This document shows, piece by piece, positions 52,713 to 53,934 of a DNA stretch of 64,000 nucleotides. This DNA is from a virus. Lineage: Duplodnaviria; Heunggongvirae; Uroviricota; Caudoviricetes. A program made the translations under genes and the position numbers. The DNA is taken from the IMG/VR virus record IMGVR_UViG_3300025778_000009; one strand, written 5' to 3'. The notes under the pieces were generated by a model. It worked only from the letters and a program-made list of their open reading frames with translations, did no database searches and was not told the origin of the DNA. Numbering within the stretch: position 1 is the first letter of the stretch; each line of letters starts with the position of its first letter.

Positions 52713-53233
52713 TGTATTATTCAACAAAGACATATGGTACTGATAGAGGTTTAAGTTGTTGCTTCCGTCAATGGAAAGCAGATCATAGTCACTGTTCTAC
52801 TCTTCATGGCTACTCGATCGGTATTAAATTAATTTTTAAATCAGAAACCCTTGATGAAAAAAACTGGGTTATGGACTTTGGTGGACTAAAAGCTTTTAAG
52901 GCTTGGGCTGATCATATGTTTGATCATACAATGCTTATTGCACAAGATGATCCACATTTAGATACTTTTATCGAATTGAATAATATTGGTGGTGGTTTTA
53001 ACGATAGCGGTGTTGTTGATCTGCGTATAGTTGATGCAGTTGGATGTGAGGCATTTGCTGAAATGACTTATCACGTTATGAATAATATCTTGAAATCATT
53101 TCAGGAAGGTGATATAGTAGAGATTGATGATCAAGAATATACTGCACGGTATCCTGTCAACAAAGGTGTAAAGCTAGTTTCGGTAGAAGTATTTGAACAT
53201 GCAGGTAATTCTGCAGTATACGAAGGTGAATAA
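52712..53233 (+). CDS. queD: 6-carboxy-5,6,7,8-tetrahydropterin synthase
   Basis: GLSCCFRQWKADHSHCSTLHGYSIGIKL carries the CxxxHGH-type zinc site of the QueD/PTPS fold. The 173-aa length is typical. Confidence 0.75.
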   Translation: MYYSTKTYGTDRGLSCCFRQWKADHSHCSTLHGYSIGIKLIFKSETLDEKNWVMDFGGLKAFKAWADHMFDHTMLIAQDDPHLDTFIELNNIGGGFNDSGVVDLRIVDAVGCEAFAEMTYHVMNNILKSFQEGDIVEIDDQEYTARYPVNKGVKLVSVEVFEHAGNSAVYEGE

Positions 53234-53934
53234 TGATTAAAGGTTATAGAGATTATTTTACACCAGTAGTAGTAGAAGAAGAGCAGCCGATTAAAAAACT
53301 TTCAGCTATTATTTTTTCTTGCTCATTAAAATCAGATCCAAATAAATCTATGTCTCATTATCTTAGTGAGATAGTTAAAGATAAGTTTGATGCAGAAAAT
53401 ATTGAAACAGAAATTGTTTATATTAAAGATCTAAAAGATTTTAAATTTGGTGTAGAAAGAGAAGTTGAAGGTGAAAAAGATGACTTTACAGACTACATTG
53501 ATAAAGTAATTAATTCTGATATAGTTATTGTTGCCACTCCTATATGGTGGGGCGTCCATTCTAGTCTTGCACAAGCAGTCTTAGAAAGATTAACTTGGTT
53601 TGATGATGAAGCATTAAGAACAAATCATAGTTTACTTTACGGTAAACTTTTTGGTACTATTGTTTCAGGTGCAGAAGATGGATGGCAACACATTCAAGGT
53701 AATATGTTTAATTTTGCTTCTGAGCTAGGGTTTATAGTTCCTCCAAAAGCTTTTATTTCATCTAAGATGCAGAGTAAAAAAGAAATAGATAAAGACAAAG
53801 AGACACAAGACCAAGTTAATAGTTTTACTACTATTATGGTTGATCTTTGTAAAGTAATTTCATATAATGATTTAAATCAGTCGTTTCAATCAAATGGATT
53901 TTTGCAAGTAGGTACACTTGCTGGTAAAAAATAA
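53233..53934 (+). CDS. flavodoxin-like NAD(P)H-dependent FMN reductase family protein
   Basis: KLSAIIFSCSLKS...IVIVATPIWWGVHSSLAQAVLERL is the NADPH-dependent FMN reductase / flavodoxin_2 signature. Confidence 0.6.
   Translation: MIKGYRDYFTPVVVEEEQPIKKLSAIIFSCSLKSDPNKSMSHYLSEIVKDKFDAENIETEIVYIKDLKDFKFGVEREVEGEKDDFTDYIDKVINSDIVIVATPIWWGVHSSLAQAVLERLTWFDDEALRTNHSLLYGKLFGTIVSGAEDGWQHIQGNMFNFASELGFIVPPKAFISSKMQSKKEIDKDKETQDQVNSFTTIMVDLCKVISYNDLNQSFQSNGFLQVGTLAGKK

Follow-up and report, generated by a model that had tools for sequence, protein, structure and literature searches.

The window analysed here is a stretch of 64,000 nucleotides from the tailed-phage record IMGVR_UViG_3300025778_000009. 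Its deazaguanine block holds, between the genes for QueD and FolE, an open reading frame (ORF) for a flavoprotein of the FMN_red family (FMN, flavin mononucleotide). The ORF occupies 53233..53934 on the plus strand and its product carries the signature IVIVATPIWWGVHSSL at residues 97-112. [quoted passage not shown] Because sister phages lack the gene and relatives of the protein travel with superoxide dismutase and ferritin, we favour a mobile general redox helper over a QueE partner.

The ORF is a real, functional gene under purifying selection and not a chance reading frame. This follows from homologues of 78-92% identity in independent assemblies, from pairwise ratios of non-synonymous to synonymous substitution (dN/dS) of 0.08-0.12 at dS ~1.0-1.3 among the close homologues, and from a confident flavodoxin-like core in the AlphaFold model. 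The gene order QueD-FMN_red-FolE is kept in every 78-92% homologue with readable context, including the contigs of P0001-P0004; five variants of 79-92% identity occupy this position.

Family, fold and conserved motifs

The 233-amino-acid protein matches the Pfam profile FMN_red (PF03358) with E=1.4e-15 and 57.7 bits (cut-off 24), residues 27-177 covering positions 5-148 of the 152 in the profile. Flavodoxin_2 scores 19 bits, under the Pfam cut-off. The original prediction is upheld in its choice of family, with a flavodoxin-like fold and a place among the NAD(P)H-dependent FMN reductases. Flavodoxin_1, the profile of the true flavodoxins, gave no Pfam match at E<=0.01, and no PHROG family matches the protein. 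The SsuE and MsuE equivalogs (TIGR03567 and TIGR03566) are not reached either, with 18.6 and 17.8 bits against NCBIfam cut-offs of 164 and 212. The protein is acidic, with an isoelectric point (pI) of 4.9. A profile search of 1.84 billion cluster representatives returned 3652 members of the subfamily at E<=1e-3 and 236 at E<=1e-30; many homologues are named 'multimeric flavodoxin WrbA' by JGI. Pfam domains beyond FMN_red in ten long family members were limited to DUF5709 in one and a T4SS pilin domain in another, and no informative fusion was found.

An AlphaFold2 model computed from a 21-sequence alignment has a mean predicted local distance difference test score (pLDDT) of 83 and a predicted template modelling score (pTM) of 0.81. 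Residues 23-211 are confident and form a core of alternating strands and helices, and both ends are disordered (residues 1-17, with pLDDT below 50, and 216-233). As determined with Foldseek against the Protein Data Bank (PDB), the top 50 matches are all flavodoxin-like flavoproteins. RosB (5mji) leads the list with E=1.3e-13, a query template modelling score (TMq) of 0.70 and ~21% identity, followed in order by NQO2, EmoB, ArsH, SsuE, AzoR, WrbA and FerB; true flavodoxins are listed from rank 19 down, at TMq 0.46-0.52. Among predicted viral structures only two phage proteins share the fold (~13% identity, E~1e-9), namely an 'NADPH-dependent oxidoreductase' of Synechococcus phage S-N03 and a 'multimeric flavodoxin WrbA'. 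The protein is a flavodoxin-like-fold member of the NAD(P)H-dependent FMN reductase superfamily, within the subfamily that contains RosB and outside the true flavodoxins. It belongs, in other words, to a known kind of flavoprotein and to a poorly known phage subfamily.

Positions invariant across the family alignment are L32, S39, D83, A101-T-P-I-W105, S110, E118-R119, K138, G146 and D149-G150. With regard to FMN binding and NAD(P)H oxidation, both predicted, the sequence shows conservation of three motifs, the S29-H42 loop, ATPIWW and GAEDG. The first of them, SCSLKSDPNKSMSH, presumably corresponds to the GSxRxxS loop of FMN_red proteins, from which its label as phosphate-binding loop is drawn, and it aligns with TTLRRSPSRSQTQ of RosB. 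At the position of the signature RosB reads ATPITLNM in the PDB sequence alignment. The N-terminal extension is present in the alignment in the window protein, P0001-5 and P0007-9 only.

RosB, the 8-demethyl-8-aminoriboflavin-5'-phosphate synthase of Streptomyces davaonensis (5MJI/5MLD), is the closest solved structure. In the PDB sequence search it is the sole strong match, with E=5e-17 over residues 23-173 aligned to RosB residues 3-160, and the next entry, 1rli, follows at 0.002. The two proteins have in common the flavodoxin-like core, a phosphate-loop-like S/T-L-K/R...S segment, ATPI and a G-x-EDG-x-x-H motif. RosB turns FMN into 8-amino-FMN on the way to roseoflavin and carries extensions and a C-terminal arm of its own, whereas the phage protein has Trp105-Trp106 in place of Thr-Leu, other terminal extensions and no roseoflavin context (PMC11039241).

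With the Pfam threshold passed and structural matches at E~1e-7 to 1e-8, the PF03358 reductases SsuE, MsuE, EmoB, ArsH and ChrR/FerB offer an analogy for the chemistry, and NAD(P)H-dependent FMN reduction is likely for the phage protein as well. It differs from these enzymes in reading ATPIWWG instead of a TPEYN-type motif and in lacking a sulfonate, ethylenediaminetetraacetate (EDTA) or arsenic gene context. The fold also matches WrbA and NQO2, and an oxidative-stress role like that of the WrbA/NQO-type quinone oxidoreductases would fit the gene context of the phage relatives described below, although phmmer against the PDB detects no sequence similarity to characterised WrbA. True flavodoxins such as E. 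coli FldA and B. subtilis YkuN, the usual 'biological' reductants of radical SAM enzymes including QueE in vitro, share the fold (5wid, 3f6r and 5lji, E~1e-7), the acidic pI and FMN as the expected cofactor. The phage protein is longer than these, belongs to a multimeric-type family and, as stated, does not match Flavodoxin_1.

Insertion at the QueD/FolE junction

The QueD stop codon overlaps the FMN_red start codon within GAATAATG. In the sister contigs L095 and L097, whose QueE is 86% and 82% identical to that of the window, the identical string GAATAATG joins the QueD stop directly to the FolE start; in L011 the overlap, again as TAATG, is between the FMN_red stop and the FolE start. These junctions reveal a precise insertion of a single ORF into a translationally coupled gene pair. 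The FMN_red gene has a GC content of 29.9% and a third-position GC content (GC3) of 14.5%, compared with 35-39% and 22-30% in the genes for QueE, QueD, FolE, QueF and QueC.

An HNH endonuclease gene between FolE and DpdA3 is a second lineage-specific insertion in the block, 1 kb from the FMN_red gene. It is missing in L095, the closest IMG/VR sister contig, where g54763 abuts g55314, which indicates that the block accepts insertions. As FMN_red and the HNH endonuclease exemplify, the deazaguanine block is, in these T4-like phages, a hot spot for the precise insertion of single ORFs, and the endonuclease may have helped to import flanking DNA. Over 48.5-60.5 kb a scan counted 68 promoter-like sites, no excess over shuffled sequence (59.9 +/- 8.7). 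The same scan found no plus-strand terminator-like site between QueE and FolE, a result that is compatible with co-transcription without demanding it.

Distribution of the cluster and of the flavoprotein

Scanning IMG/VR with the window QueE yielded 38 loci. QueE identities within the clade span 59-98%, and the full-length matches are 59-86% identical apart from an outlier at 27% (L131). The better-covered contigs carry the same cluster, with peptide deformylase, the small ORF g51348, QueE, QueD and FolE, and several of them also encode DpdA3, DpdN, QueF and QueC. None of the 38 loci has an FMN_red gene. An exact-motif scan of IMG/VR found 83 stretches of DNA coding for ATPIWWG, and not one lies on the 38 QueE-clade contigs, among them the 160-kb contig behind L107. 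The cultured immuto phages do not have the gene either.

The cluster motif of the window QueE reads C41-x3-C45-x34-C80, so that, relative to CX3CX2C, 32 extra residues are inserted between cysteines two and three. Such a loop would offer a special reductant an inviting place to dock. We considered it as a correlate of FMN_red and rejected it, since it is also present in contigs that lack the gene (L095, L107 and L129). It further occurs in the jumbo-phage contigs L018/L019 and is absent from immuto and L131.

From the side of the flavoprotein, scanning IMG/VR with the family alignment gave at least 80 loci with relatives of 27-45% identity. Their contigs were covered for 10 kb on either side, and the counts that follow for SodC, ferritin and Que genes refer to the 80 listed loci. 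A search with phmmer and the window Que proteins placed QueE/FolE within 10 kb in two of them, L018 and L019. These are jumbo contigs of 290 and 524 kb with the que genes 4-8 kb away on the opposite strand (QueE at 7 kb). The co-occurrence of family and queE across phages, which the original prediction had put forward as its own check, is therefore not borne out on either side. Cu/Zn superoxide dismutase (SodC) is found in 21 of the loci, and in 19 of these it lies at most ~1.2 kb upstream on the same strand; a ferritin-like gene is found in 14, nine times within 1.3 kb. A single listed locus has both. T4-type DNA polymerase is encoded ~2 kb away in 68/83 loci. Pfam matches among the 124 distinct flanking proteins were to Sod_Cu (17), Ferritin (7), Ogg-HhH (2), Rubrerythrin (1) and Radical_SAM (1). 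The lone Radical_SAM protein is not QueE; it has 359 residues and is encoded directly upstream of an FMN_red relative in L091 (8904-11032; identical in L092), with a ferritin-like gene directly downstream, an independent case of a flavoprotein gene next to a radical SAM gene.

The closest non-trivial relatives of the window protein, P0007-9, are 51-54% identical, also 233 residues long and share both terminal extensions. They are encoded in a different phage in the order Methyltransf_21-FMN_red-397aa-122aa-Ferritin, and no other gene there is common to the window. Among the closest non-trivial relatives, L001, L004 and L006 have a ferritin-like gene. Neighbour-joining places the ferritin-linked L001/L006 and L015 as sister to the window clade, with the L018/L019 lineage apart. 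A role like that of NrdI, linked to ribonucleotide reductase (RNR), was rejected: there is no RNR subunit among the 124 flanking proteins, and only a weak RNR-II insert domain lies 6 kb away in L001.

In uncultured aquatic phages of the T4-like and jumbo types (L015-L094; for example L079 9363-11128 and L089 9435-10675), mini-modules of SodC, FMN_red and sometimes a ferritin-like gene recur near the DNA polymerase gene, with an occasional 8-oxoguanine glycosylase or rubrerythrin. No description of a SodC-FMN_red-ferritin module was found in the literature searched.

Functional interpretation

On the basis of these data we propose that the gene is a mobile auxiliary gene for an FMN_red-family NAD(P)H oxidoreductase that usually goes with SodC or ferritin, and that its insertion at QueD/FolE, by chance plus retention, left it co-expressed with the preQ genes; we give this reading about an even chance. 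The gene would circulate among aquatic T4-like and jumbo phages, usually in small oxidative-stress and iron-handling modules near the replication genes, flanked upstream by Cu/Zn superoxide dismutase and/or downstream by a ferritin-like gene. In the window lineage one copy would have entered as a single ORF at the coupled QueD|FolE junction of a pre-existing cluster and then been kept by purifying selection; its position suggests co-expression with QueE. FMN binding, the electron donor and acceptor and the physiological role are predictions from sequence. Bound FMN would be reduced by NAD(P)H, and a small acceptor, for instance a quinone, free flavin or Fe(III), would take over the electrons, so that oxidative damage would be limited and iron and flavin held reduced during infection. 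Any boost to QueE through reduced FMN would be a side benefit and not a dedicated partnership.

Several observations weigh against this proposal. The 64-kb window itself encodes neither SodC nor ferritin, and the association with these genes is seen only in relatives of 30-54% identity, so the function may have shifted. Two further lineages, L018/L019 with QueE and L091/L092 with the non-QueE protein, have the family near radical SAM genes. Most flanking viral proteins have no Pfam match, and the neighbourhood theme thus rests on an identifiable minority. Finally, QueD-FMN_red-FolE has persisted with translational coupling over dS ~1 or more, as would also be expected if the protein were useful to the pathway.

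This last point leads to the alternative of the original prediction, that the protein is the phage's own NAD(P)H-fed electron donor for QueE, reducing its [4Fe-4S]2+ cluster directly, in the place of a flavodoxin, or through released reduced FMN, and making deazaguanine synthesis independent of host flavodoxin. The gene lies two genes downstream of that for QueE, coupled to QueD and 11 nucleotides before FolE, and purifying selection has kept this arrangement in at least five variants. The protein is acidic, as flavodoxins are, and two other lineages place the family near radical SAM genes. The QueE of this clade has the unusual insertion in its cluster-binding loop, a region that reportedly (Grell et al., 2019) has been argued to determine flavodoxin specificity. 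Which reductant serves radical SAM enzymes in vivo is still uncertain, and for QueE and PapB reductive activation in vitro takes no more than FMN plus NADPH (PMC11994313, PMC10470005). A precedent is TYW1 of eukaryotes, in which a radical SAM enzyme is genetically linked to an FMN-carrying flavodoxin domain and needs only NAD(P)H (PMC8941971), although that is a fusion conserved throughout eukaryotes, whereas here a different flavoprotein family supplies a sporadic, lineage-restricted neighbour gene. Given the in vitro activation by reduced FMN and the TYW1 precedent, an FMN reductase could plausibly raise QueE activity through the reduced FMN that it makes.

The comparative evidence nevertheless speaks against a dedicated donor. 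None of the 38 sister QueE loci carries the gene, and because L095, L107 and L129 have the same atypical cluster motif without it, QueE there must use host reductants; the loop insertion, in short, does not follow the presence of the gene. In 78 of the 80 listed FMN_red loci there is no QueE, QueD or FolE within 10 kb, the recurrent neighbours being SodC and ferritin. The protein is not a true flavodoxin, and its closest characterised relatives are two-electron NAD(P)H:flavin or quinone oxidoreductases or the FMN-modifying RosB. Moreover, radical SAM enzymes have been argued to need no dedicated partner (PMC11994313, PMC10470005), and immuto makes DNA with 7-(formylamino)methyl-7-deazaguanine (fdPreQ1) without such a gene. 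The QueE-reductant hypothesis is chemically permitted and comparatively unsupported, and we regard a dedicated donor as decidedly unlikely. More doubtful again is a combined version, in which a captured mobile NAD(P)H:FMN reductase became fixed in the preQ operon as an on-site supply of reduced flavin that activates the atypical C-x3-C-x34-C QueE. Were it true, a virus would for the first time be seen to encode the reductive activator of a radical SAM enzyme, and, with sister phages lacking the gene, there would be a natural experiment on the reduction of radical SAM clusters in vivo.

Close to the proposed mobile redox helper stands a ferric or flavin reductase whose reduced flavin would free Fe(II) from ferritin or reduce Fe(III), and so feed iron enzymes such as di-iron RNR and the [4Fe-4S] enzyme QueE. 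E. coli flavin reductases of the Fre type reactivate the R2 subunit of RNR and release ferritin iron. The ferritin-like neighbours, in 14 listed loci and in the closest non-trivial relatives, the one rubrerythrin neighbour and the consecutive radical SAM, FMN_red and ferritin genes of L091/L092 all suit such a role. Yet SodC and not ferritin is the commonest neighbour, a single locus has both, the window has no ferritin gene, and no RNR genes were found among the 124 flanking proteins scanned. Iron mobilisation overlaps with the reading we prefer to an extent that sequence alone cannot separate, and taken by itself we consider it unlikely. The location between two pterin enzymes is the sole support from this locus for a pterin-salvage reductase, which would return oxidised 6-carboxy-dihydropterin to 6-carboxytetrahydropterin (CPH4), the O2-labile substrate of QueE made by QueD. 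Some FMN-dependent NAD(P)H oxidoreductases, for example E. coli NfsB, do have dihydropteridine reductase activity. This salvage role fails on co-occurrence in the same way as the QueE donor, the protein has no homology to known pteridine reductases, and the TAATG cassette junction is precise enough to account for the position with no appeal to function; the role is very improbable. We find it hardly probable at all that FMN is the substrate, as in RosB, with oxidation or replacement of its C8 methyl group giving 8-formyl-, 8-carboxy- or 8-amino-FMN during infection. No other solved structure comes nearly as close as RosB by sequence and by fold, and ATPI, ExL, K and G-x-EDG are common to both, but the identity is low, and RosB has Thr in place of Trp105, which is invariant in the subfamily of phage and bacterial proteins. 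In addition, the subfamily is broad, in contrast to the handful of Streptomyces that produce roseoflavin (PMC11039241), and the scanned ORFs of the window included none recognisable as rosA, rosC or a riboflavin gene.

The mobile redox helper that we prefer bears on annotation: the product is best named an FMN_red-family NAD(P)H-dependent oxidoreductase, and neither a flavodoxin nor a component of the Que pathway. Uncultured aquatic phages, both T4-like and jumbo, widely carry the RosB-related FMN_red subfamily, and tblastn with the 233-residue protein against the deposited phage genomes of INPHARED returned two weak, unannotated matches only. Its recurrent SodC and ferritin company points to an undescribed viral mini-module for oxidative stress or iron handling. 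A phage with its own radical SAM reductant would inform the unsettled in vivo question, and the comparative evidence indicates that the link is not general. The original prediction was right that a redox partner is not a described component of phage deazaguanine clusters: 'flavodoxin' and 'FMN' have no occurrence in PMC10516641, and we found no paper that links such clusters with flavodoxin or FMN reductase.

Deazaguanine cluster and phage background

The source element is a T4-like myovirus, as the window encodes T4-type replication, capsid and scaffold proteins (UvsY, UvsW, gp47, gp46, gp45, gp44, gp62, RegA, the gp23 major capsid protein and the scaffold). Its nearest cultured relatives by UvsW are the Methylophilales phage Melnitz (54%) and cyanomyoviruses, and megablast of 49000-58300 against INPHARED found no near-identical phage genome. 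The genes and features of the block are collected in Table 1. NCBIfam FolE models hit with E=1.5e-40, at 139 bits against a curated cut-off of 202. Further plus-strand genes in the stretch 55742-60122 are a DUF3310 ORF, QueF, QueC, a GATase_6-like ORF after QueC (58981-59610) and a dCTP-deaminase-like ORF.

Judged by its gene content, the predicted deazaguanine cluster is complete and of the type of Flavobacterium phage immuto, with FolE, QueD, QueE, QueF, DpdA3 and DpdN in both. Immuto differs in gene order, in the loop of its QueE and in the missing FMN_red gene; its DNA carries 7-(formylamino)methyl-7-deazaguanine (PMC10516641). From the immuto-type gene set, this or a related base is predicted in the T4-like phage.

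Table 1. Features of the FMN_red gene and of the surrounding deazaguanine block (window coordinates)
Feature	Position	Strand	Remarks
QueE radical SAM enzyme	51568-52458	+	Radical SAM enzyme placed at 51595..52458, with atypical C-x3-C-x34-C motif; NCBIfam QueE models match in two stretches, under curated cut-offs
92-amino-acid ORF	52434-52712	+	Between QueE and QueD
QueD (6-carboxytetrahydropterin synthase)	52712-53233	+	Pfam PTPS E=4e-16; TIGR03367; upstream neighbour of FMN_red
Insertion junction GAATAATG	53227..53235	+	QueD stop overlapping FMN_red start
FMN_red-family flavoprotein gene	53233..53934	+	233 amino acids plus stop, ATG start; PF03358, RosB match, dN/dS
N-terminal extension	53233..53298	+	Residues 1-22, predicted disordered; MIKGYxDY..PVV only in the 233-residue phage clade
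Predicted FMN 5'-phosphate-binding loop SCSLKSDPNKSMSH	53317..53358	+	Residues 29-42; L32 and S39 invariant
Signature IVIVATPIWWGVHSSL	53521..53568	+	Residues 97-112; A101-W105 and S110 invariant; predicted isoalloxazine-contacting loop
GAEDG motif	53668..53682	+	Residues 146-150; G146, D149 and G150 invariant; RosB counterpart GNEDG
C-terminal tail	53866..53931	+	Residues 212-233, predicted disordered; G..(A/S)GK ending kept within the 233-residue clade
FolE (GTP cyclohydrolase I)	53946-54677	+	Pfam E=3.8e-39; starts 11 nucleotides past the FMN_red stop
HNH endonuclease	54977-55330	+	Pfam HNH; between FolE and DpdA3
DpdA3-type transglycosylase	55742-56533	+	57% identical to immuto DpdA
DpdN-type formyltransferase	56530-57066	+	39% identical to immuto DpdN

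Upstream of QueE, the plus-strand stretch 49144-51358 includes a 359-residue ORF with a PP-loop-like SGGIDS motif and no Pfam, NCBIfam or PHROG match, an ORF with a cupin domain (50220-50879) and one for a peptide deformylase (50879-51358). Throughout the clade the peptide deformylase and g51348 are kept beside QueE.

Elsewhere in the window, collagen triple-helix repeats occur in ~15 stretches (Pfam Collagen E=1.8e-85) of a plus-strand ORF of 2207 residues (1747-8370), presumably the gene of a fibre or decoration protein. Between the capsid and replication genes, a minus-strand block that includes 37804-38589 and 36584-37780 encodes an NAD-dependent epimerase/dehydratase and an SPFH/Band 7 protein, and within the same block an ORF at 39199-39504 encodes a stand-alone N-terminal domain of DNA ligase (Nlig-Ia).

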